Positions 23,058 through 49,890 of a DNA stretch of 64,000 bases are shown here, in pieces. Made by a program: the position numbers and the translations under genes. The DNA is from Thermoanaerobaculia bacterium (GTDB taxonomy: Bacteria > Acidobacteriota > Thermoanaerobaculia > Multivoradales > JAGPDF01), in contig CAWBFZ010000001.1 in assembly GCA_963788175.1 (NCBI GenBank), positions 724,804 through 788,803 on the forward strand. The letters are read 5' to 3'. The notes below the pieces were generated by a model. It ran no database searches and was not told the DNA's origin. It saw only the letters and a list, made by a program, of their open reading frames with translations. Each line of letters opens with the position of its first letter. The first letter of the stretch is position 1.

Positions 23058-24570
23058 TCAGAGCTTCGGGACCGAGCCCATGAGGTACTTGAGGTCGTCG
23101 TCGCTCCAGCGGATGCCGACGCCCACGAAGGGCGACCGGTACTGTTCGACCAGCGGATCGTCGTAGCCCGCCTTGACGTAGAGATTGCGGTAGAAGTTCC
23201 ACTGTCCGGTCAGCCGCAGGTGAGGATCGAGGTCGAGCTCGCGGCCGAAGTCGAACGCCTCGAACGAGAGCATCGCCCGCTGCCGGAAGAACTTGTAGTC
23301 GACCTGCACCCCGGCCGTGTTCTCGAGGATGCCGGCCCAGAGGGAGCCGCGGCGGTCGGCGAAGGGGAAGCCGAAGAGCGCCGACCAGTTGTTGCGCCGC
23401 GTCTCGCTGGTCAGCCGGTCGGTCGTGGTCGTCGCCGTCGAGCCGTCCGGCAGCGTGACGGTGACGATCTCGCGCTTCTCGGAGATCCGCCCGCGCGGGT
23501 CCGAGACCAGCTCGACGCGGTAGTAGCGCGGGCTCTCCTCGCCGTGCGGCAGCAGGTCGAGGCGGAAGGCCGAACGCGTGTCCTCGAGCTCCGAGAGGTA
23601 GGCACCGTCGAGCCCGAGCTCGAGCTTGAGCTCGTTCACCCGATTGAGCGTCGAGCCCAGCGCGTCGACCCCCTTCTCGACGCTGCCGAGAGCGCTCATC
23701 AGCTGGTCGTGCGCCTCCGGGCTGTTGACCAGCTTGCCGATCGTGCCCTCGCCGCTGGCGATCCTGGTGGTGATCTCGTTCAGGTTGTCGACCGAAGTCT
23801 GCACGTCGGCCGTGAGCTCCTTGATGTTCGCCATCGAGTCCTTGAGGTTGCCGCGGTTCTCCGCCAGCACGGCGTCGACCTGGTCGAGGACACGCGCGAT
23901 CTGCTCGGTGATGCGCGGCAGCTCGCGGGCGAGCGTCTCGCTGAAGCGCTCGAAGTTCGCCACCGTGCCGGAGAGGTTCGAGCGGTTCTCGACGATCAGG
24001 GCGCGCAGCTCGTCCGAGGTCGCCTGGATCGCTGTCGATCAGCGTCGAGAAGCCGCCGGGCGATCTCGAGCCGCCCGAGCCACCCAGACCCCCCTCGCCC
24101 CCCTTCCCGCCGCCCAGGAAGTCCTGCACCGACGTGCCGATCTCTTCGATCTTCGCCATCGCGTCGTCGAACGAGACCGGCGTCGTGCCGGCGAGCACGG
24201 TGCCGGGTGGCAGGAGCGCCGCCCCTTCCGGCCCGAGCCGGAGCTCGACGAACTTGTCGCCGAGCAGTCCCTGGTTGGCGATCGCCGCCGAGCTCCCTTC
24301 GACGAAAGCGATCGGCTGGTCGAGGAGCAGCGAGACCCGGGCCTTCCGCCCTTCGAGCGCGATCCCGTCGACCCGGCCCACCCGCACACCCGCCAGCCGC
24401 ACCGCCGCCTTGTCGTCGAGGCCGACGACCGAGTCGAAGACCGCGTCGACCCGCACGCCCTTGGGACCCCAGAGCCGCCAATCCTCGACCCGCAGGATGA
24501 GCCAGCCCAGAATGACGAGACAGATCGTCATGAAGATCCCGACCTTGACGACTTGGGAGGTGTTCGACAT
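23058..24570 (-). CDS. mlaD: Long MCE/MlaD-family protein with coiled coil and beta-rich C-terminal domain; one frameshift near 24030
   Basis: N-terminal TM, MCE motif '[18 protein letters not shown]...[10 protein letters not shown]', helical repeats, 'GEGTIGKLV'. Confidence 0.85.
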
Positions 24571-24602
24571 CGGCTACTCCTTCGCTGCTTCCGCTGGCGA
24601 CC

Positions 24603-25374
24603 TCATTCGGTCAACGGTCCGGTGGCCAGTCCCTGAATGAACTGCTGCACCCGCGGATCGGGCGAAGCGCGAAACTCCGCGGGCGGCGCATAGGCGATGA
24701 TCTTCCCCTGATGAAGCATCGCGATCCGCTCGGCGATGCGGAAGGCGCTGTCCATGTCGTGGGTGATCGAAACCGCGGTCGATCCGAGCTTCGCCTGCAG
24801 CTCCAGGATCAGCTGGTCGATGACCGCCTTCATCACCGGATCGAGACCGGTCGTCGGCTCGTCGAAGAGCAGGATCTTGGGTTCGAGGGCGATGGCGCGC
24901 GCGAAGCCGACCCGCCGCCTCATGCCGCCGGAGAGCTCGGCCGGCATCTTCTGGTCGGCACCCTCGAGGTGCACCATCTCCAGGCACTCGGCGACGCGCG
25001 CGGCGATCTCCGCCAGCGGACGGCCGGCGCGGCGCAGGGCGAAGCCGACGTTCTCGGCCACCGTCATCGAGTCGAACAGCGCCCCTTCTTGAAAGGCCAT
25101 GCCGAAGCGGCGGCGGAAGCCGGTGATGGCGCGCCCGTCGAGCGCAGCGATATCGACACCGTCGACGACCACCGTTCCGGAGTCCGGGGCGAGCAGCCCG
25201 ATCATGTGCTTGAGCAGGACGCTCTTGCCGCTCCCCGAGCCGCCGAGGATGACGACCGACTCGCCCTTCGTAGATCGCGAGGTCGAGCTCGTCGAGGACG
25301 ATCTTCCCGCCGAACGACTTCGAGACCTTCTGCAGGTCGATCTTGGTCGGCGGCAGTGCGCTCGGCGTCGCCAT
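24603..25374 (-). CDS. mlaF: MlaF-type ABC ATPase; one frameshift
   Basis: Walker A 'GGSGSGKS', 'FQEGALFDS', 'LSGGMRRRVG', 'DEPTTGLDP'. Confidence 0.9.
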
Positions 25375-25424
25375 GCTCAGAAGAAGATCCTGGTTGCGGA
25401 GGACAAGGCTCGCATTCACCGTCC

Positions 25425-26183
25425 TCAGAACAGAATCTTGGTCAGGAAGAAGTCGGAGATCAGGATCGCGATCGAGGCGAGGACGACCGCGCGCGTCGTC
25501 GCCCGGCCCACCCCCTCCGCCCCGCCGCGGGTGAAGTAGCCCTTCTGGCAGCCGACCACGGCGATGATCAGACCGAAGACCGCGGCCTTGATGAGGCCGG
25601 AGGTGATGTCCTCGAGGTCCATGTAGCGGAAGGTGTTTTCGGTGTAGGTCACCGGATTGGCGCCGAAGTAGACCACCGAGATGAGATAGCCGCCGACGAT
25701 GCCGATCGCGTCCGCGACGACGATCAGCAGCGGCAGCATGAAGACCGTCGCCCAGACCCGCGGCACGACGAGGAAGTGCACCGGATCGGTGGCCAGGACC
25801 TCGAGCGCGTCGATCTGCTCGGTCACCCGCATCGTGCCGAGCTCCGCCCCCATCGCCGAGCCGCAGCGGCCGGCGATGAGCAGCGACGAGATCACCGGCG
25901 CGAGCTCGCGCACCATCGAGAGCGCCACCAGCGAGCCGACGAAGCCCTCGGCGTTGAAGCGCTTCAAGGTCGAAAAAGTCTGCAGCGCCATCACCATGCC
26001 GGTGAACAGCGCCGTGAGGAGCACCACCGGCAGCGAGTCGACGCCGATGCGGACCATCTGGCGAACCAGCTCCCTGAAGTCGTACGGGGGGCGCGGCGTC
26101 CAGGCGATCGTCCGGCCGAGGATCTGGAAGAACCGCCCCATCTCGGTGAAATAGCCCTCGAGCGGCATCGCCCGCGTCGTCAT
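25425..26183 (-). CDS. mlaE: MlaE-type ABC permease
   Basis: 'RELAPV...AGRCGSAMGAELGTMRVTEQIDALE', 'GGAEGVGRATT'. Confidence 0.93.
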   Translation of the reverse strand: MTTRAMPLEGYFTEMGRFFQILGRTIAWTPRPPYDFRELVRQMVRIGVDSLPVVLLTALFTGMVMALQTFSTLKRFNAEGFVGSLVALSMVRELAPVISSLLIAGRCGSAMGAELGTMRVTEQIDALEVLATDPVHFLVVPRVWATVFMLPLLIVVADAIGIVGGYLISVVYFGANPVTYTENTFRYMDLEDITSGLIKAAVFGLIIAVVGCQKGYFTRGGAEGVGRATTRAVVLASIAILISDFFLTKILF

Positions 26184-27397
26184 GGAGTCGACTCGACCGG
26201 CAGGGCGCGCGCTTTCGGGCTTGCGCCGGAATTCCTCGGCACCCTCTCGACCAGACGCCGCGGCAGGCGCAGGCCGAAAAGGCAAAGCAGCTGGTAAGGG
26301 ATGGTTCCGACTTCCGCGGCGAGCTCCACTGCCGAGATCGCTTCGGCGCCCTGGCGACCGAGGAGCGTGGCGCGCGTCCCGACTTCGGCGGCAATACCCG
26401 TGACGTCGAGTGCGAGCAGATCCATGCTCACCGAGCCGACCACCGGCACACGCTGGCCCGCGACCAGCACCTCGGCGCGATTGCCCAACCGCCAGGAGTA
26501 TCCGTCGGCGTAACCGACCGGCACGATGCCGATGCGGCTGGGCCGCTCGGCGACCCAGCGGCCGCCGTAGCCGACCCGGGTGCCCACGGGGATCTCTTTC
26601 ACCTGAACGATCTCGGCCTCGACCGACAGCACCGGCTCGAGCTCCGCCGACAGCCGCCCCGCCGAGTCGTAGCCGAAGAGCGCGATCCCCAGCCGCACCC
26701 AGTCGAAGCGCGCCGCCGGCAGATGCAGAGCTCCGGCGCTGTTCGCCAGGTGAACCGTGATCGCCGCCCGTTCCTTCCCGGTGAGGAAAGAAAGGACCTG
26801 TTGAAAGCACTCCTGCTGCCGCGCGTTCGAGTCCGAATCGGGGGTCTCGGCCTCGGCGAGGTGCGACATCACCCCTTCCAGCCGCAGTTCCGGCGAAGAA
26901 CGAAAAAGCTCGAACAGGGAAAAAGCTCCCTTCGAGTCGATGCCGAGTCGCGTCATGCCGGTATCGAACTTGAGGTGCAGCGGCGCAGTCCAACCACACC
27001 CTTTACTGAAGCCTTTTAGAGCCTGCAGGCTCTCCAGGCTGGATATGACCGGAGTGAGCCGGTACCGCTGGAGAACCGGAGCTGCTTCTGGCGGAAGAGG
27101 AGAGAGGACGACAATCTGTGATTCCACACCCGATTCCCGCAGCTCGATCGCCTCTTCGGCGGTGGCGACGGCAAAGCCGGCCAGGCCGCTGTCGCGCTCG
27201 TGGCCTTCGGCCTCGAGCGCCTGGGCGACCGCCACCGCGCCGTGGCCGTAGGCGTCGGCCTTGACGACCGCCAGGATCTTGGCCGGCGCTACGCGCGCGG
27301 CGAGGAGCCGGAAGTTGCGCCGCAGCGCCGCGAGATCGACTTCGACCCAGGCCCGGCGGAGTGTCGGCGCGCCGTGCTGCCTCTCAACCAACGTCAC
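26180..27397 (-). CDS. alr: Alanine racemase
   Basis: 'AVVKADAYGHG', 'DTGMTRLG', 'HLANSAG', 'VGYGG', 'GYADGY', 'VSMD'. Confidence 0.95.
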   Translation of the reverse strand: MTLVERQHGAPTLRRAWVEVDLAALRRNFRLLAARVAPAKILAVVKADAYGHGAVAVAQALEAEGHERDSGLAGFAVATAEEAIELRESGVESQIVVLSPLPPEAAPVLQRYRLTPVISSLESLQALKGFSKGCGWTAPLHLKFDTGMTRLGIDSKGAFSLFELFRSSPELRLEGVMSHLAEAETPDSDSNARQQECFQQVLSFLTGKERAAITVHLANSAGALHLPAARFDWVRLGIALFGYDSAGRLSAELEPVLSVEAEIVQVKEIPVGTRVGYGGRWVAERPSRIGIVPVGYADGYSWRLGNRAEVLVAGQRVPVVGSVSMDLLALDVTGIAAEVGTRATLLGRQGAEAISAVELAAEVGTIPYQLLCLFGLRLPRRLVERVPRNSGASPKARALPVESTP

Positions 27398-28739
27398 TCC
27401 CGGCGTGGCTCGGATCGTAGCTGTGAAAACGCGTCGTCTCGCCCTTGAAGACGAGGTTGACGGTGGCGGTCTCGCCGTTGCGGTGCTTGGCGATGATCAG
27501 CTCGGCGAGACCGCGCAGCGAGGGGTCCTCCTTGTTGTAGATCTCGTCGCGGTAGATGAACGCCACCAGGTCCGCGTCCTGCTCGATCGAGCCCGATTCC
27601 CTGAGGTCCGAGAGCACCGGCCGGTGGTCGCCGCCGCGCTTCTCCGAGGCGCGCGAGAGCTGCGACAACAGGATGATCGGGATGTCGAGCTCCTTGGCGA
27701 GCTGCTTGAACGACCGGGTGATCGCCGAGATCTCGAGGTTGCGGTTCTCGAACCGTCCCCCCGCCTGCATGAGCTGCAGGTAGTCGACGACCAGCACCTC
27801 CAGACCCTTCTCGGCCTTCAGCCGCCGCGCCTTGGAGGCGACCTCGAGGAGGGTGGGCGCGGCCGAATCGTCGATGAACATCGGCGCCTTGCCGATCTCG
27901 GCCATCTTCTGCACGACCTTCACCCACTGCTGCTGCGACAGGTGCCCCGAACGGATGCGCGAGAAGTGGATGTCGGCTTCGGCACAGAGGATGCGCAGCG
28001 CGAGCTCCTGCTGCCCCATCTCGAGGGAGAAGATCCCCACCGTCTTCTTCTCGCGGATCGCGACGTGTGAGGCGACGTTGAGCGCGAAGCTGGTCTTTCC
28101 CATGCCCGGGCGGCCGCCGATGATGATCAACGTCCCCTTGCCCAGGCCGTGGGTCAACTTGTCGTAGTCGACGAAACCGGACGGCACGCCAGTGAGGGCG
28201 GAGCCCGGGTTCTCCTCGAGCATCTCGAGGGTCTCTTCGATGATGCGGTCGAACGGCACGAAGCCCCGCCGGACCGCCTCTTCGCCGAGCGCCATGACCG
28301 CCGACTCGGCGCGGTCGAGCGCCTTCTGCGCGTCGACGCCGCCGTCGAGGCAGTCACGAGTGATGTCGCGACAGACATCGATCAGCCGCCGCCGGACCGA
28401 GCGCTCCTTGACGATCTCGACGTAGTGCTCGAAGCGCCCGAGGTCCGGGAGGTCGACGTCGAGGCCGGCGAGGTAGGCGAGGCCGCCGGCACTCTCGAGC
28501 GCCGCTTTCTGCTCGAGCTTTGCCTGCACGGTGCGCAGATCGATCGAGACCTGGCTCTCCTGCAGGTCGAGCATCGTGGCGTAGATCAGGCGGTGGCGCT
28601 CGGCGTGGAAATCCTCCGCCTTGAGCCGCCCGGAGACCGACGGCAGCAGACGCGGGTCGAGCAGCACCGCCGCCAGCACGGCGCGCTCGGACTCCTCGCT
28701 CTGCGGCATCGACTTCGGGTGTTTGAGGACTTCGAGCAT
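27384..28739 (-). CDS. dnaB: Replicative DNA helicase
   Basis: 'GRPGMGKT', 'FSLEM', 'DYLQLM', 'LSQLSR', 'LSDLRESGSIEQDAD', 'KHRNG'. No intein. Confidence 0.97.
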   Translation of the reverse strand: MLEVLKHPKSMPQSEESERAVLAAVLLDPRLLPSVSGRLKAEDFHAERHRLIYATMLDLQESQVSIDLRTVQAKLEQKAALESAGGLAYLAGLDVDLPDLGRFEHYVEIVKERSVRRRLIDVCRDITRDCLDGGVDAQKALDRAESAVMALGEEAVRRGFVPFDRIIEETLEMLEENPGSALTGVPSGFVDYDKLTHGLGKGTLIIIGGRPGMGKTSFALNVASHVAIREKKTVGIFSLEMGQQELALRILCAEADIHFSRIRSGHLSQQQWVKVVQKMAEIGKAPMFIDDSAAPTLLEVASKARRLKAEKGLEVLVVDYLQLMQAGGRFENRNLEISAITRSFKQLAKELDIPIILLSQLSRASEKRGGDHRPVLSDLRESGSIEQDADLVAFIYRDEIYNKEDPSLRGLAELIIAKHRNGETATVNLVFKGETTRFHSYDPSHAGSDVG

Positions 28740-28820
28740 GGACAGGGCTATCCTAGCCGAAGAGGAGCCCCGGCGAAGCCGGCCGTCACCGGCTCGCCAG
28801 GGGCGCGGGCGGCGAGCCGC

Positions 28821-29303
28821 CTAAGGCAGCGGCACGCTGGTGTTGTAAGCGTCCGCCAGGCACTTCCACTTGCCGTCCACCTTCTTCCAGACCTCCAGGT
28901 ACTTGCCCTTGTCGGTCACCGTCTTGCCGTCGGGACCGGTGAAGGTCAGGGTGTAGAAGCCGCTGGTGTAACCCAGCTCGCCGCTCGCCGCCACCTGGGC
29001 GCGCTCGGCCTCCCAGAAGATCCTGGCGTCGGGCAGCTGCATGAGACCGTTCCACGAGGCGCGGATCGCTTCCTTGGTCCGCGCCACCGGCTCGTTGGGC
29101 GCCAGCGTCTCGCCGTCGTCGGCCATGAAGGCCACCGTGGCATCGAGATCCTTGCGGCCGGCCGCCTCCGCCCAGGCCTTGTCCAGAGCCTTTAGCGCCG
29201 CCTCCTCGGCCGCCCGGTCGACCTTGGCCCCCTCCGCCACCGCCAGTCCCGTTCCGGCCACCAGGCAGACCCCCGCCAGCGCCAACATCCGTCGCATGTT
29301 CAT
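28821..29303 (-). CDS. Secreted NTF2-like (DUF4440/YybH) protein
   Basis: Signal peptide; 'ASGELGYTSG', 'GKYLEVWKK..GKWK'. Confidence 0.85.
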   Translation of the reverse strand: MNMRRMLALAGVCLVAGTGLAVAEGAKVDRAAEEAALKALDKAWAEAAGRKDLDATVAFMADDGETLAPNEPVARTKEAIRASWNGLMQLPDARIFWEAERAQVAASGELGYTSGFYTLTFTGPDGKTVTDKGKYLEVWKKVDGKWKCLADAYNTSVPLP

Positions 29304-29395
29304 CGCATCTCCCCCATGGTTGAAGCGCGCAACCTACCACGCCTGTGACCCCGCCCCCCGTCGTCCGAGCCTGCCGCTCTGTGACCCCTTTCCCG

Positions 29396-30151
29396 TCAGG
29401 GATTGACGGGCGTGCGCTCGAGAAAGGCGCGCAGGCGGGCCTCGCTGCCGGAGCGGAATTCGACGTAGCGCAGGCCGATGCCTTCGAGCTTGCCTTGCCC
29501 GCCCGCGGCATGGCGCACGACCACAGCGGACCCGAACACGGCTTCGCGCTCTTCCGGCAGCATGAGTTGAAAGCTCATCGTCGAGCCGAGGGGATAGCGC
29601 GCATCGCTGCGCACGAACATTCCCGTGGCCGAAAGGTCGACGGTCTGACAGAACTCCTGGCGGTCGCCGTCGCTGATCCGGGCCTGGAGACGGACCATGA
29701 CCCGCGAAGCGACCCGGGGCGCCACCTGCAGCAGCCGGGCGGCGAACTCGCTCAGAAACTCGCCGGTCCGTTCCGTGGCGAGCGCGGCGTCGGCGCCCTC
29801 GCCGACCAGCCTCTGGGCCTGGAACAGCCGCGCCTCGTCCGCCAGAAGCAGGACCTGGCAGCCGGCGCTCGGTGACCCGGGGACTCTCACCGCCGCGAGC
29901 AGGTCGGTGACGTCGATATCGGGCAGCGGATAGCGCACCAGAACCAGATCGAAGGCGATGGCTCCGCAGAGGACGCGGCCGCTGTCGCCGCGCGGCACCT
30001 TGTCGACCTCGAAGTAGGAGCGATTGAGCAGCGCCTCGATCCGGCCGTAGACCTCCGGCTCCATGCCCACCGCCAGGATGCGGCGCAGGACCCGGGCCGG
30101 CGGCTCCGCGCCGGCCCCCCGCGTTGCGCCGACCTCTTCGCTCTCGTCCAT
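29396..30151 (-). CDS. Receiver-like domain plus PilZ domain protein
   Basis: PilZ motifs RxxxR ('RVASR') and 'DLSATGM'; N-terminal 'FDLVLVRYPLPD' resembles a receiver lacking the phospho-Asp. Confidence 0.8.
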   Translation of the reverse strand: MDESEEVGATRGAGAEPPARVLRRILAVGMEPEVYGRIEALLNRSYFEVDKVPRGDSGRVLCGAIAFDLVLVRYPLPDIDVTDLLAAVRVPGSPSAGCQVLLLADEARLFQAQRLVGEGADAALATERTGEFLSEFAARLLQVAPRVASRVMVRLQARISDGDRQEFCQTVDLSATGMFVRSDARYPLGSTMSFQLMLPEEREAVFGSAVVVRHAAGGQGKLEGIGLRYVEFRSGSEARLRAFLERTPVNP

Positions 30152-47525: not shown

Positions 47526-47613
47526 TGGTGCCGGAGCCCGGGGTCGAACCGGGACGCCCCTTTCGGGACGGAGGATTTTAAGTCCCCTGCGTCTGCCATT
47601 TCGCCACTCCGGC
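47526..47613 (-). tRNA. tRNA-Leu (TAA)
   Basis: GCCGGAG...CTTAAAA anticodon loop, long variable arm, TTCGA, encoded CCA; 88 nt. Confidence 0.95.
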
Positions 47614-47733
47614 TGGGGTGGATTGTAGGCCAAGCGGGGGCTGGGTGCGGGTCCGCACACGGCCGTCCTCGATCGAGGACGGCTAGAGCCTAAGCGTTGC
47701 CGGGTGTTGAAGTTGGGCGGAGAGGGGAGATTG

Positions 47734-47808
47734 TGGAGGCGACGGCCGGAGTCGAACCGGCGAATGAGGGTTTTGCAGACCCTTGCCTTACCACTTGGCT
47801 ACGTCGCC
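47734..47808 (-). tRNA. tRNA-Cys (GCA)
   Basis: GGCGACG...CTGCAAA...GGTTCGACTCC...TCCA; 75 nt. Confidence 0.95.
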
Positions 47809-47815
47809 CTTAGAG

Positions 47816-47841
47816 AGAAGGCCGCCCGGAGGCGGCCTTCT
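47816..47841. other. Perfect 11-bp hairpin between tRNA-Gly and tRNA-Cys
   Basis: AGAAGGCCGCC-CGGA-GGCGGCCTTCT; processing hairpin or weak terminator. Confidence 0.6.
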
Positions 47842-47867
47842 GTGAGGCAAAAACGAAGGCTAAAAAT

Positions 47868-47942
47868 TGGAGCGGGAAACGGGACTTGAACCCGCGACCC
47901 CAACCTTGGCAAGGTTGTGCTCTACCACTGAGCTATTCCCGC
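47868..47942 (-). tRNA. tRNA-Gly (GCC)
   Basis: GCGGGAA...TTGCCAA...GGTTCAAGTCCC...TCCA; the Gly-Cys-Leu order matches glyW-cysT-leuZ. Confidence 0.95.
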
Positions 47943-47954
47943 CCGGGCCTGCGG

Positions 47955-47984
47955 ACGATAGCGAACGGCCACGCGGGCTGTCAA
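47955..47984 (-). promoter_or_regulatory. Sigma70-type promoter of the tRNA cluster
   Basis: TTGACA, 18 nt spacer, TATCGT just upstream of tRNA-Gly. Confidence 0.6.
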
Positions 47985-48385
47985 GGATGCAGCACCGGCG
48001 CGTCGAAGGCGTTCTTCACCAGGGTGAAGCTCCAGGCGCCGTCGCGGCCGCGGTCGAGGCCGAGGACGTCGAAGCGGCAGGGGCGCTGGGAGCGGTTTTT
48101 CGCCAGGAAGAGCAGGGCGGCTTTGGCCAGCCGGCGCTGCTTCTGCGGGCCCACCGCTTCGATCGCCCGGCCGAACTCGGCGGTCGCCCGGGCCTTGATC
48201 TCGATGAAACAGAGCGTCTCGCCGTCGAGCGCCACGAAGTCGAGCTCGCCGACCTTGGTGCGGACGTTCCGGGCGACGATCCGGTAGCCCGACAGCCGCA
48301 GGAAACCCTCCGCGGCGTCCTCCCCTGCCGCCCCCCGCGCATGCGTGTGCGGCAGGTCACCGAAGCCCTTGAGGCCGGAGCTCAT
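47981..48385 (-). CDS. YraN family protein
   Basis: 'GAAGEDAA..FL..GYRIVARN..GELDFVA..LCFIEIKAR', 'CRFDV'. Confidence 0.9.
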   Translation of the reverse strand: MSSGLKGFGDLPHTHARGAAGEDAAEGFLRLSGYRIVARNVRTKVGELDFVALDGETLCFIEIKARATAEFGRAIEAVGPQKQRRLAKAALLFLAKNRSQRPCRFDVLGLDRGRDGAWSFTLVKNAFDAPVLHP

Positions 48386-49817
48386 CGTCTCCGCCGCCCT
48401 ACCGCCGCTTCCACCGCGTCCCCTGCGGCGAGTCCTCGAGCACCACCCCGCGCGCCGCGAGGTCGTCGCGGATACGGTCCGACTCGGCGAAGTTGCGCGC
48501 CGCGCGCGCCGCCACGCGCGAAGCAATCGCGGCTTCGATCTCGGCCTCGGAGGCGAGATGTGTCGGCTCCGGAAGCGGCCACCGTGCCCCACGGCATGAA
48601 GATCACGCCCAATGCCTGGTCCACTAGCCGCAACGCCGCGATCACCCGCTCCGGATCGCCAGCACCCAGCTCCCGCCGATCGATCATCCCGTTCACCTCG
48701 CGCACGAAATCGAACAGCGAAGCCAACGCTGCGGACACATTCAGGTCGTCGGCGAGACCAGCCGAGAACCCAGAAACCAAGGTCTCTACCTTTACTGAAA
48801 GCTTTTCTTCTTCCTGCTGAACGACCACGGCATGCGCCGACCCGATCGATGAAGTCGTCGAGCCGGATCAACGCTGCGCGCGCTCCGTCCAGCCCGGCGA
48901 AAGTGAAGTTGAGCTTCTGCCGGTAGTGCACCGAGATCAGCAGGTAGCGCAGGGCGCGCGGCGAGATGCCACGCGCCAGAAGGTCGGAGAGAGTGTAGAA
49001 GTTGCCCAGCGACTTCGACATCTTCTGGCCGTCGACGATCAGGTGCTCCGAGTGCAGCCAGGTGCGCACGAAGGGCACGCCGTTCGCCGACTCGCTCTGG
49101 GCGATCTCGTTCTCGTGGTGCGGGAAGAGGTTGTCGACGCCGCCGCAGTGGATGTCGAAAGTCTCGCCGAGGAAGGCGGCGCTCATCGCCGAGCACTCGA
49201 TGTGCCAACCCGGGCGTCCGGGGCCCCAGGGCGAGGGCCAGCTGGGCTCGCCGGGCTTGGCGCCCTTCCACAGCACGAAGTCGCGCACGTCCTCGGTCTC
49301 GTACTCGTCGCTCGCGACCCGCTCCCCCACCCGGGCCTCGTCCTTCTTGAATCCGGAGAGCTTGCCGTAGTCGTCGTCGGCGGCGATGCGGAACCAGACC
49401 GAGCCGTCGCTCTCGTAGGCGAAGCCCGGCGGCGAGCAGGCGAGCGATGATCGCCTGCATGCCGTCGATGTAGTGCGTGGCGCGCGGATAGGCCGCCGCC
49501 GGCACGACGTTCAGTGTCGCGAGATCGGCCGCGAACGAGGCGATGAACGGCGCGGTGTAGACGTCGAGCGCCAGGCCCTTCTCGAAGGCGCCGCGGATCG
49601 TCTTGTCGTCGACGTCGGTGAGATTCATGATCTGCGTGACCTCGAAGCCGAGGAAGCGCAGACTCCGGCAGAGCAGATCCTCGAACAGGAAGGTCCGGAG
49701 ATTGCCGATGTGGACCGTGTTGTAGACCGTCGGTCCGCAGGTGTAGATGCCGACCTTCCCGGGCTCGAGCGGCTCGAACGGCTCGAGCCTGCGCCCGAGC
49801 GTATTGAAGAACTTCAC
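48382..49817 (-). CDS. cysS: Cysteine--tRNA ligase; frameshifted
   Basis: '[12 protein letters not shown]', 'DFVLWK', '[13 protein letters not shown]', '[11 protein letters not shown]', 'KMSKS'. Confidence 0.95.
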
Positions 49818-49890
49818 ACTCTCTGCGATCCACACGACTCCTTTCGAGCACCCGGTCCGTCCGCCCGGCACGAGTCCGGTGGGGTCGAGC

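Follow-up and report, generated by a model that had tools for sequence, protein, structure and literature searches.

The 64,000-nucleotide stretch of DNA analysed here (the window) carries alr and cysS on its minus strand, and motif-like sites lie within both genes. The features to which we refer are the following, with positions given in the window.

26180..27397, minus strand: alr, alanine racemase, an intact 405-aa ORF and host of the low-GC3 patch
26858..27217, no strand: low-GC3 patch in alr, GC3 0.60-0.70 in 60-codon windows
26996..27022, plus strand: motif copy in alr, core 27000-27017 CCTTTACTGAAGCCTTTT; coding strand L-K-G-F-S-K-G
26901..26921, minus strand: degenerate partner in alr; coding strand ...CCCTGTTCGAGCTTTTTCG (S-L-F-E-L-F-R), a weaker call made by eye
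26284..26300, minus strand: third site with weak similarity to the motif, in the 3' portion of alr, CCCTTACCAGCTGCTTT, with two core mismatches
48399..49820, minus strand: cysS, sole genomic copy, present as ORF fragments that carry the Pfam domains tRNA-synt_1e and DALR_2
48785..48811, plus strand: motif copy in cysS, core 48789-48806 CCTTTACTGAAAGCTTTT; coding strand E-K-L-S-V-K

The product of alr matches the Pfam domains Ala_racemase_N (7e-66) and Ala_racemase_C (1e-41), and the gene is present in 31/31 relatives. The cysS frame is broken in the assembly by extra single bases at 49429, 48836 and 48555, and a fourth extra base at 49818 lies at or before the start; the cysS genes of five relatives are open frames of 480-495 aa without these bases.

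A preliminary description had placed a patch of anomalous codons at 26760-27140 in alr. Scans of GC and GC3 show that the patch is real and slightly shifted, to 26858-27217. GC falls to 0.58 at 26900-27099 compared to 0.70-0.74 on either side, and in 20-codon windows GC3 is 0.45-0.60 at 27038-27142, 26948-27052 and 26873-26947 against 0.85-1.0 in the flanks. Genome-wide, the patch lies in the 1.0-2.6 percentile of GC3 (43,670 windows of 60 codons, taken from the 'genes' of our own crude caller; mean 0.89, sd 0.07). The possibility that reads do not support the patch is contradicted by Logan metagenome contigs from three other studies that span it: X2 matches 26859-27268 with 0 differences and 26248-26825 with 1, X1 covers 25937-26960 with 4 differences and X3 covers 26825-27046 with 3.

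The patch is a composite of the motif (27000-27017), its degenerate partner (26901-26921) and a few lineage-specific synonymous changes at 27085-27140. The GC3 dip at the motif is common to the alr genes of the 8 closest relatives (0.39-0.78, alignment columns 130-150), whereas 27085-27140 is low in this genome only (GC3 0.40 vs 0.65-0.90 in the same relatives) and is set apart from the nearest relative solely by a few synonymous substitutions. About 12/16 letters of the partner fit the motif, which is below the thresholds of our patterns. The partner and the copy at 27000, ~80 bp apart, face outward as a (-,+) pair.

The two 18-mers CCTTTACTGAAGCCTTTT and CCTTTACTGAAAGCTTTT lie where they had been reported, both on the plus strand and 16/18 identical, and they are indeed read in different codon frames: AAA GGC TTC AGT AAA GG in alr (KGFSKG) and AA AAG CTT TCA GTA AAG G in cysS (EKLSVK). 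Two substitutions in contigs X1 and X3, 27011 G>A and 27012 C>G, turn the alr motif into the cysS-type variant. Outside the 18-mer, local alignment reveals no likeness between the alr and cysS patches (score 32 vs 22.65 +/- 3.27, maximum 36, in 200 shuffles).

A lineage-specific family of motif copies

The 18-mers belong to an asymmetric motif of ~26 bp, YYCCTTTACYGG-N(1-4)-CTTTT followed by a pyrimidine-rich tail. Its logo shows a pyrimidine-rich strand with one conserved A and is not palindromic, and the gap between the two conserved blocks varies by ~5 bp. With the strict pattern CCTTTACYG-N2-6-CTTT we find 76 copies in the genome (40 forward, 36 reverse), compared to 0, 0 and 0 in three third-order Markov genomes. 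Loose copies number 152, and reversed-pattern controls yield 0 strict and 17 loose copies. A chance match of the 18-mers finds no support, given the 76 copies against 0 in the Markov and reversed controls, and the background-level count that the preliminary description had considered does not apply. The density amounts to 76-152 copies per 4.46 Mb, or one per 30-60 kb.

The motif is restricted to one lineage. Strict copies number 20-90 in each of 13 genomes from a single sub-clade of the genus and 0-2 in the 18 other relatives searched, of which 4 belong to the same genus and 14 to other genera. The bearers are uncultured wastewater Thermoanaerobaculia (Acidobacteriota). Low-GC3 windows contain the motif ~12 times more often than other windows (34/934 vs 123/42,736); part of this association is circular, since a motif copy brings down the GC3 of its own window. 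The AT-rich flank or mutational footprint proposed in the preliminary description is not a general property of the sites: the DNA between and beside paired copies has a GC of 0.60-0.76.

All-against-all BLAST of 151 flanks (+/-250 bp) found no longer common element around the copies; matches were limited to self-overlaps, paralogs and stretches of 23-82 bp, mostly centred on the motif. Rfam identifies four tRNAs in the window and no family at five motif loci. Among the papers listed for 10-mers of the motif, none deals with a genomic repeat, and the literature listed on Thermoanaerobaculia, activated sludge and inverted repeats holds nothing relevant.

Placement, pairing and conservation of the copies

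According to our crude gene caller, 52/82 copies (~63%) lie inside ORFs and 30 are intergenic; the motif is enriched roughly twofold in intergenic DNA. Within genes, 29 copies run along the gene and 23 against it, and every phase is used. As coding sequence, the copies specify unremarkable residues of Alr, AlaRS, GlyS, RsmB and kinases, written in rare codons; in alr and alaS, comparison with relatives shows no added residues and no length change or gap at the arms. The motif occurs in all frames, on both strands, in unrelated genes and in intergenic DNA, and the earlier view that it is a nucleotide-level rather than a protein motif therefore holds.

Neighbouring copies follow a pairing rule. 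Among 35 neighbours less than 600 bp apart, 26 are outward-facing inverted (-,+) pairs (binomial p = 1e-9), and the same arrangement is found for 9/11 neighbouring copies in the related genomes G004 and G008. The spacers of the 26 pairs measure 15-495 bp and are mutually unrelated in sequence; those of alaS and alr are essential coding sequence with no insertion. In at least six kinase paralogs, two copies spaced 83-84 bp apart lie within the region for the catalytic domain, and tandem arrays of 2-3 copies lie downstream of genes (C11:135256-135290, C1:594251-594280). Beyond 600 bp, the alternation of orientation along contigs is roughly random.

On a larger scale, the 111 loci that result from collapsing pairs and leaving out 6 kinase paralog loci are spread unevenly over the contigs, which are unordered (chi-square 52.8, p = 8e-8), with density varying several-fold from one contig to another. 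Contig C1 has 56 loci vs 32 expected, C7 has 2 vs 7.3, and C9, which carries dnaA, has 0. In G004, 29/50 copies lie on the contig that bears alr. The strand polarity that the preliminary description had suggested looking for is absent with respect to replication on C1: the GC-skew switch, located near 600-650 kb, is preceded by 15 plus and 16 minus copies and followed by 24 plus and 21 minus copies. A Chi- or KOPS-like polarity is rejected on the same contig, as orientation is not skewed with replication direction.

An excess of copies is further seen close to gene boundaries, where they take a fixed orientation: same-strand gene starts lie 0-250 bp downstream, and opposite-strand ORFs often end at the TAA inside the motif (14 vs 3.3 expected in the first 50-bp bin; both results depend on the crude ORF caller). 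This enrichment could reflect a transcription-linked role. A promoter with sigma-70, sigma-54 or sigma-32 spacing was rejected, since the logo has no conserved second element downstream to +44 (compared by eye with known consensus sequences), and a Shine-Dalgarno sequence on the reverse strand was rejected for lack of an excess of gene starts directly downstream.

Orthologous sites are kept in alr, cysS and alaS of related species, A/T-ending codons included; for alr and cysS this was a check that the preliminary description had proposed. In the 8 closest related species the alr site reads AAA/AAG GCT/ACT/GCC TTC AGT/GGT AAA/AAG GGG. The 7-codon window of highest synonymous identity in alr begins within the motif (0.90 vs a baseline of 0.61, rank 1/366), and motif codons are A/T-ending in 51% of cases compared to 19% overall. 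The cysS site is kept in 4/5 relatives and degenerate in the fifth, and both arms of the alaS pair are kept in 3/3 relatives. The alaS gene of the motif-free congener G002 keeps the protein context but spells it with G/C-rich codons and differs at two residues. These sites resemble conserved rare-codon clusters in that runs of rare codons are maintained at fixed positions of a gene. Unlike in such clusters, one nucleotide word recurs here irrespective of frame and strand, and also outside coding sequence, and hence translation speed is not the common denominator.

Conservation of intergenic copies is more varied. At the pair C5:720694/720860 the right arm is identical in 6 species save for its single variable position; the left arm persists in 4 of them and has changed in 2, while the surrounding DNA diverges. 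Of three intergenic pairs examined, one is kept, and at the other two arms were gained or lost independently between species, indicating that not every copy is constrained.

Possible function of the motif

We tentatively regard the motif as a selected binding site on DNA for a putative DNA-binding protein, a reading that we hold at somewhat below even probability. The enrichment, lineage restriction, independence of frame and strand, conservation, pairing rule and regional bias are observed; that a protein binds, and what its role might be, we infer. The alr and cysS 18-mers would then be two copies of a lineage-specific asymmetric site kept by selection and recognized on double-stranded DNA by a putative sequence-specific protein. 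The working unit would usually consist of two inverted sites that face outward, 15-500 bp apart. Sites might be placed wherever the sequence tolerates them, essential genes included, even though this requires rare codons and some changes of amino acid. A nucleoid-associated or chromosome-organising protein would explain the copy number, the indifference to the direction of transcription and replication, and the uneven density better than a gene-specific regulator would. Such a protein might act by bridging, looping or boundary formation. The variable gap of ~5 bp between the conserved blocks, together with the asymmetry, is awkward for a rigid protein contact.

Chromosome-organising systems offer a partial precedent. 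The sites of matS/MatP, NBS/Noc, SBS/SlmA and parS/ParB are short palindromes bound by dimers. The motif shares with them a copy number of tens to about a hundred, a frequent intragenic location, indifference to transcription, conservation and an uneven spread, but differs in its asymmetry, its variable inner spacer and its head-to-head pairs. A ParB_N search of the genome gave four matches in three places, the two on C1 being one split gene. To our knowledge, gene-independent genome-wide DNA words (uptake signals, Chi, KOPS, matS, NBS, REP) are few and come nearly all from cultured model bacteria. The motif is a new DNA word with an unusual mix of properties: it is asymmetric, arranged in head-to-head pairs, located in essential genes, conserved between species and unevenly spread. 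It is also a concrete, testable case in which synonymous sites are selected for a function at the DNA level. Should a protein recognize it, that protein would open a new approach to how chromosomes are organised or recombine in Acidobacteriota.

The copies might alternatively be end-like or crossover sites of a site-specific recombinase or domesticated transposase, with the pairs acting as invertons or recombination hot spots, and those within the kinase paralog array would promote the exchange of kinase heads. We consider this unlikely. The inverted-pair rule (26/35) and spacers of 15-495 bp match the geometry of invertons flanked by inverted repeats and of terminal inverted repeats, and the 83-84 bp pairs in at least six kinase paralogs point in the same direction. 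However, the spacers are unrelated and include essential alaS and alr coding sequence without insertion, and the inner segment is colinear in 6/6 species at C5:720.7 kb and in 4/4 at C1:388.6 kb. Moreover, among 15 of 28 joints listed for 24000-30000, none lies at the alr pair or changes strand, contigs being blind to rare forms. Genes resembling the RAYT/IS200 Y1 transposase occur in 30/31 relatives with or without the motif and are thus not discriminating. A poxvirus-like topoisomerase IB, suggested by the YCCTT core, was rejected: it is absent here and present in 3/31 relatives, unrelated to the motif.

The mobile and invertible elements closest to this arrangement differ from it in similar respects. 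Invertons with a common inverted-repeat consensus (for example the Mpi regulon of Bacteroides fragilis) and intragenic invertons also comprise many loci with inverted repeats around 15-500 bp, some of them intragenic, whereas the motif shows no inverted form in relatives at the two loci examined and its segments hold essential coding sequence. REP sequences (REPIN, RAYT transposases) are extragenic imperfect palindromes whose doublets form hairpins. Like them, the motif is a lineage-specific short repeat that occurs as inverted doublets and singlets; unlike them, 63% of its copies are intragenic, single copies are non-palindromic and the arms do not co-vary. A REPIN-like hairpin family does exist in this genome, but it is distinct from the motif and unrelated to it. 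MITEs that enter genes (Correia and Rickettsia palindromic elements) similarly have inverted ends, here ~26 bp, in units that are often 100-200 bp long and sometimes intragenic. The motif, in contrast, has no internal sequence common to the family, adds no residues to Alr or AlaRS compared to motif-free relatives, and has arms that are gained and lost separately. Insertion of a MITE finds no support, as there is no family-wide internal sequence and no gap at the arms in alr and alaS.

An uptake-signal-like (USS/DUS) or other 'self' tag, spread by biased uptake and recombination (molecular drive), would settle where coding sequence is already few substitutions away from the motif. We rate this reading as rather improbable. 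Consistent with it, the motif is over-represented on both strands and lineage-specific, intergenic DNA has a roughly twofold excess, yet most copies are intragenic in all frames, and the alaS motif arose from a near-match already present in the motif-free congener. As in USS and DUS, there are some inverted pairs, and a core is followed by phased T/A tracts. The USS of Pasteurellaceae and the DUS of Neisseriaceae, however, occur roughly once per kb in hundreds to thousands of copies, so that the motif, at one site per 30-60 kb, is ~30 times sparser. Its pairs face outward with spacers of 15-500 bp instead of forming tight terminator hairpins, and its density differs between chromosome regions; neither such strict pairing nor a contig-level bias is expected from uptake bias.

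We assign a similarly low probability to an action of the arms in RNA. Inverted copies would pair in the transcript, with the purine arm 5' and the pyrimidine arm 3' on either strand. Such a stem would serve as a target for RNase III or a dsRNA-binding protein; alternatively, a common trans-acting RNA would contact the arms. Any two arms could form a duplex of about -22 kcal/mol, the (-,+) geometry would give the same RNA polarity on both strands, and the tandem arrays downstream of genes on C11 and C1 are compatible with such a role. Partner arms, however, pair no better than non-partners (-22.5 vs -22.7 kcal/mol, p = 0.47), and a hairpin with co-variation was rejected on this basis. Sense is not favoured over antisense in duplex stability (6/13, p = 0.99), and at C5:720694/720860 the left arm decays in two of six species without a compensating change in the right arm. 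Furthermore, loops of 50-500 nt in translated regions make poor stems, and the loci have no Rfam match.

A more specific version of the binding-site reading, which we regard as speculative and quite improbable, sees the outward-facing pairs as oriented chromosome boundary elements, each insulating two neighbouring domains. The reader of the asymmetric site would block or anchor a DNA-tracking machine from one side only, with SMC-type loop extrusion, supercoil diffusion and transcription-driven domains as candidates. The pairs would then be a bacterial counterpart of the divergent CTCF sites at domain borders, and sites would be found in essential genes because chromosomal position outweighs codon choice.

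Least probable by far is that the alr patch was imported from a lower-GC donor or is a local mutational footprint, with the cysS match incidental: the patch is indeed among the lowest 1-2.6% of GC3 windows and 27085-27140 is low in this genome only, but the latter part amounts to a few synonymous changes relative to the nearest relative, the motif is a genome-wide family, and the dip shared with the 8 closest relatives indicates an old, vertically inherited feature and speaks against the recent import that the preliminary description had allowed for. In annotating such genomes, a low-GC3 patch within a core gene should not by itself be taken as a sign of horizontal transfer.

The patch in alr and its shared word

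The preliminary description placed a patch of A/T-ending codons inside alr and a near-identical 18-mer in a second such patch, in cysS. The features concerned are as follows (window positions).

26180..27397, minus strand: alr, intact ORF of 405 aa
27000-27017, plus strand: 18-mer in alr
48399-49820, minus strand: cysS, the sole copy in the genome
48789-48806, plus strand: 18-mer in cysS

The end of dnaB (27384..28739) runs into alr, after which come mlaE and an ABC ATPase. The patch is borne out by base composition: GC is 0.58 at 26900-27099 vs 0.70-0.74 alongside, and GC3 falls to 0.45-0.60 at three spots from 26873 to 27142 (20-codon windows). In 60-codon windows, 26858-27217 has a GC3 of 0.60-0.70; measured against 43,670 windows (mean 0.89, sd 0.07) from genes predicted by a crude purpose-written caller (3,851 ORFs, 82% of the genome), this places it at the 1.0-2.6 percentile. 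The two 18-mers were likewise recovered at their positions with 16/18 identity; their coding-strand translations, in different frames, are KGFSKG in alr and EKLSVK in cysS.

The patch is also supported by independent assemblies. Of the 24 public runs listed, 20, spanning 10 studies, contain the region 25000-29000; every organism-labelled run among them is a wastewater, sludge or bioreactor metagenome. For three DNA runs, one per study (X1, X2 and X3), contigs cover the alr patch nearly letter for letter: X2 spans 26859-27268 with 0 differences from the window, X1 25937-26960 with 4 and X3 26825-27046 with 3.

Abundance, lineage and location of the motif

With up to three mismatches, the pattern of the preliminary description already matched 73 genome sites, and motif-derived words, at 9-14 occurrences each, rank near the top of 243,575 distinct A/T-rich 12-mers (median count 1). 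Anchored on its core, the logo is asymmetric and extends from about -4 to +22, comprising YY, CCTTTAC, YG, G/A, 1-4 variable bases, (C)CTTTT and a pyrimidine-rich tail. The genome-wide scan showed strong enrichment: the strict pattern CCTTTACYG-N2-6-CTTT has 76 copies in the studied genome, G000 (40 forward, 36 reverse), vs 0 for the reversed pattern and 0, 0 and 0 in three third-order Markov genomes. Allowing one core mismatch yields 152 loose copies vs 17 for the reversed control.

Among the 17 genomes of the genus, the strict pattern reaches 20-90 copies each in 13 (G000, G001, G003, G004 and G006-G014), and 0-2 copies are found in G002, G005, G015, G016 and 14 genomes from outside the genus, with reversed controls giving 0-3 throughout. 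The eight species with the motif in alr (alr 80-84% identical) all fall within the motif-bearing set. Among named public records, the closest are MAGs of uncultured Acidobacteriota and Thermoanaerobaculia.

Copies are unevenly spread over the G000 contigs (chi-square 52.8, p = 8e-8, for 111 loci with pairs collapsed and six kinase paralog loci dropped), the contigs being unordered relative to the terminus. Densities per 100 kb are 5.9 on C1 (the window contig, on which the window spans 724804-788803), 6.9 on C11 and 10.2 on C15, and 1.6 on C5, 0.7 on C7, 1.4 on C8 and 1.1 on C12; C9, which carries dnaA and parB, has 0 copies. In G004, the alr-bearing contig accounts for 29 of 50 copies. Strand polarity relative to replication, a check proposed in the preliminary description, was absent at the GC-skew switch of C1 (~600-650 kb), with 15 plus and 16 minus copies before it and 24 plus and 21 minus after. 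By crude ORF calls, gene starts on the motif's own strand are in excess within 0-250 bp downstream of it (8, 11, 6, 6 and 5 per 50-bp bin vs 3.3 expected), and opposite-strand ORFs frequently terminate at a motif-internal TAA (14 in the first bin).

For the 82 copies fitting CTTTACYG-N2-7-CTTT, 30 are intergenic, an excess over the 17.5% intergenic share of the genome (binomial p = 3e-5), and 52 lie within called ORFs, 29 along the gene direction and 23 opposite, in all three phases. They encode ordinary residues, such as PFTGAFD in RsmB, EKLPVKG in GlyS, EKLSVKG and PLLELF in AlaRS, and SFTESF and KASSEGK in kinases. The motif is thus a DNA-level rather than a protein motif, as had been proposed, occurring in every phase, on both strands, in unrelated genes and also in intergenic DNA.

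Conservation, pair geometry and possible readers

The alr site is retained in the eight closest related species as AAA/AAG GCT/ACT/GCC TTC AGT/GGT AAA/AAG GGG, but neither in G004 and G006, which bear the motif yet are less closely related, nor in seven of the more distant relatives having few copies or none. Codon identity at shared residue pairs is 0.61 for the whole gene vs 0.73 across the seven motif codons, the top 7-codon window (0.90, rank 1 of 366) begins within the motif, and A/T-ending codons make up 51% at the motif vs 19% overall. The changes 27011 G>A and 27012 C>G, found in the X1 and X3 wastewater populations (X2 has the window sequence), replace Gly by Ala in Alr and restore the canonical motif variant, making the alr copy identical to the cysS variant, the form that related species carry as well. 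The cysS copy, including its GAAGAAGAAAAG lead-in, is retained in 4/5 relatives and degenerate in one, and both alaS arms are retained in 3/3 clade relatives.

In the intergenic pair C5:720694/720860, the right arm is identical in 6/6 species except at a single variable position; four species retain the left arm and two have it altered, and flanking DNA diverges. Motif arms also undergo turnover between species. At C1:1183134/1183267, G011 has the right arm only, G007 has that arm in degenerate form, and the left arm with 150 bp is private to G000. At C1:388548/388701, the left arm is present in 4/4 species; the right arm is present in two, missing in one and displaced in one.

In alaS, the first arm reads GAA AAG CTT TCA GTA AAG GGA in the motif clade vs GAA CAG CTC TCG GCT AAG GGA in the motif-free G002, and the second CCT TTA CTG GAG CTT TTT vs CCC TTA GTC GAG CTT TTC. 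The motif thus arose in place from an already-close sequence through several substitutions, two of which changed amino acids. Codon alignments of alr (18 genomes) and alaS (5 genomes) are gapless at the motif, so the copies are not insertions.

The 152 loose copies form 35 neighbour pairs <600 bp apart, and 26 of these are (-,+), with CCTTTAC ends facing each other and T-tracts outward (binomial p = 1e-9 vs 0.25). The others are five (+,-), four being kinase paralogs, three (-,-) and one (+,+); full match lists of G004 and G008 give (-,+) in 9/11 close neighbours. The (-,+) spacers measure 15-495 bp, with 10/26 at 132-165 bp, and are of ordinary GC (0.60-0.76) and mutually unrelated sequence. 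A degenerate partner of the alr copy at 27000 (+), recognised by eye at 26901-26921 (-), suggests that the alr patch too consists of such a pair, supplemented by a handful of G000-specific synonymous A/T changes at 27085-27140. In at least six Ser/Thr kinase paralogs, the HRDLKPQN catalytic loop is bracketed by two copies 83-84 bp apart. These arms belong to the genome-wide family, in an order reversed vs the rest of the genome, and their membership weakens an RNA reading confined to the kinases.

Kinase paralog motif pairs in G000, (+,-) order
C10:7554-32295
C15:114976-115076
C1:888795-888895

Tentatively, these features are jointly best explained by selection for a putative recognition site on double-stranded DNA, because the same word occurs in each frame and on both strands in one lineage only, because purifying selection acts at synonymous sites and in non-coding DNA, because the word was created in place at some protein cost, and because neighbour geometry is strict and carries no RNA or hairpin signature. 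The putative reader would be a nucleoid-associated or chromosome-organising protein, favoured because copy number and regional bias lie within the range of matS, NBS and SBS sites, although the asymmetry, flexible inner spacer and head-to-head rule of the motif fit none of these families. An explanation outside those considered here retains a small but appreciable share.

Sites resembling recombinase or transposase ends are unlikely; inner segments are colinear in every species examined at two loci, and the pair results speak against a MITE and, weakly, against inversion. Slightly less probable is an RNA-level stem, which the pairs do not bear out in any RNA or hairpin signature. Several results speak against selection for a hairpin: partner arms pair no better than arms of different loci (-22.5 vs -22.7 kcal/mol, p = 0.47), the sense-strand duplex is more stable in 6 of 13 wholly intragenic pairs (p = 0.99), the six-species pair at C5:720694/720860 shows no compensated arm change, and the loci searched match no Rfam family. 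We give an uptake-signal-like drive of the word the same low standing as the RNA stem, and consider recombination from a donor very improbable.

Neighbouring features

cysS contains extra single bases at 49429, 48836 and 48555 and another at 49818, near the start; two of these bases flank its low-GC patch. The five relatives examined are without them, with frames open over 480-495 aa. These are either indel errors of a long-read-type assembly (G000 has 20 contigs, the largest of 1.29 Mb) or mark a real pseudogene of an essential gene. Outside the window, at C1:595193-595478, a ParB_N match lies in two pieces in different frames, adjoining a ParA-like ATPase (595586-596344) and a motif pair near the C1 GC-skew switch; intact parB and dnaA are on C9. 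The locus could be a second split gene like cysS or a second par locus.

A separate palindromic family of ~45-85 bp (GAAAAATAGGGACAGGCACACATTTC ... GAAATGTGTGCCTGTCCCCATTTTTC), with at least 11 copies in G000, has a REPIN-like appearance and shows no association with the motif, the nearest copy being 1.4-111 kb off among the elements listed.

Examples of palindromic elements
C1:34969-35019
C1:164936-165010
C1:868473-868509
C5:201746-201820
C10:160730-160803

Tandem arrays of 2-3 motif copies, repeating every 15-17 bp, occur at C11:135256-135290, C1:594251-594280 and C10:121350-121390, one directly after a gene end and one beside palindromic elements and the parAB locus. Downstream of cysS and a small gene (47981-48385), the window holds a row of four tRNA genes (47529-47942, minus strand). 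At C5:433366, a motif-like copy lies 5 bp past an apparent tRNA 3' end (...GGTTCGATCCCGTTCAGCTCCACCA).
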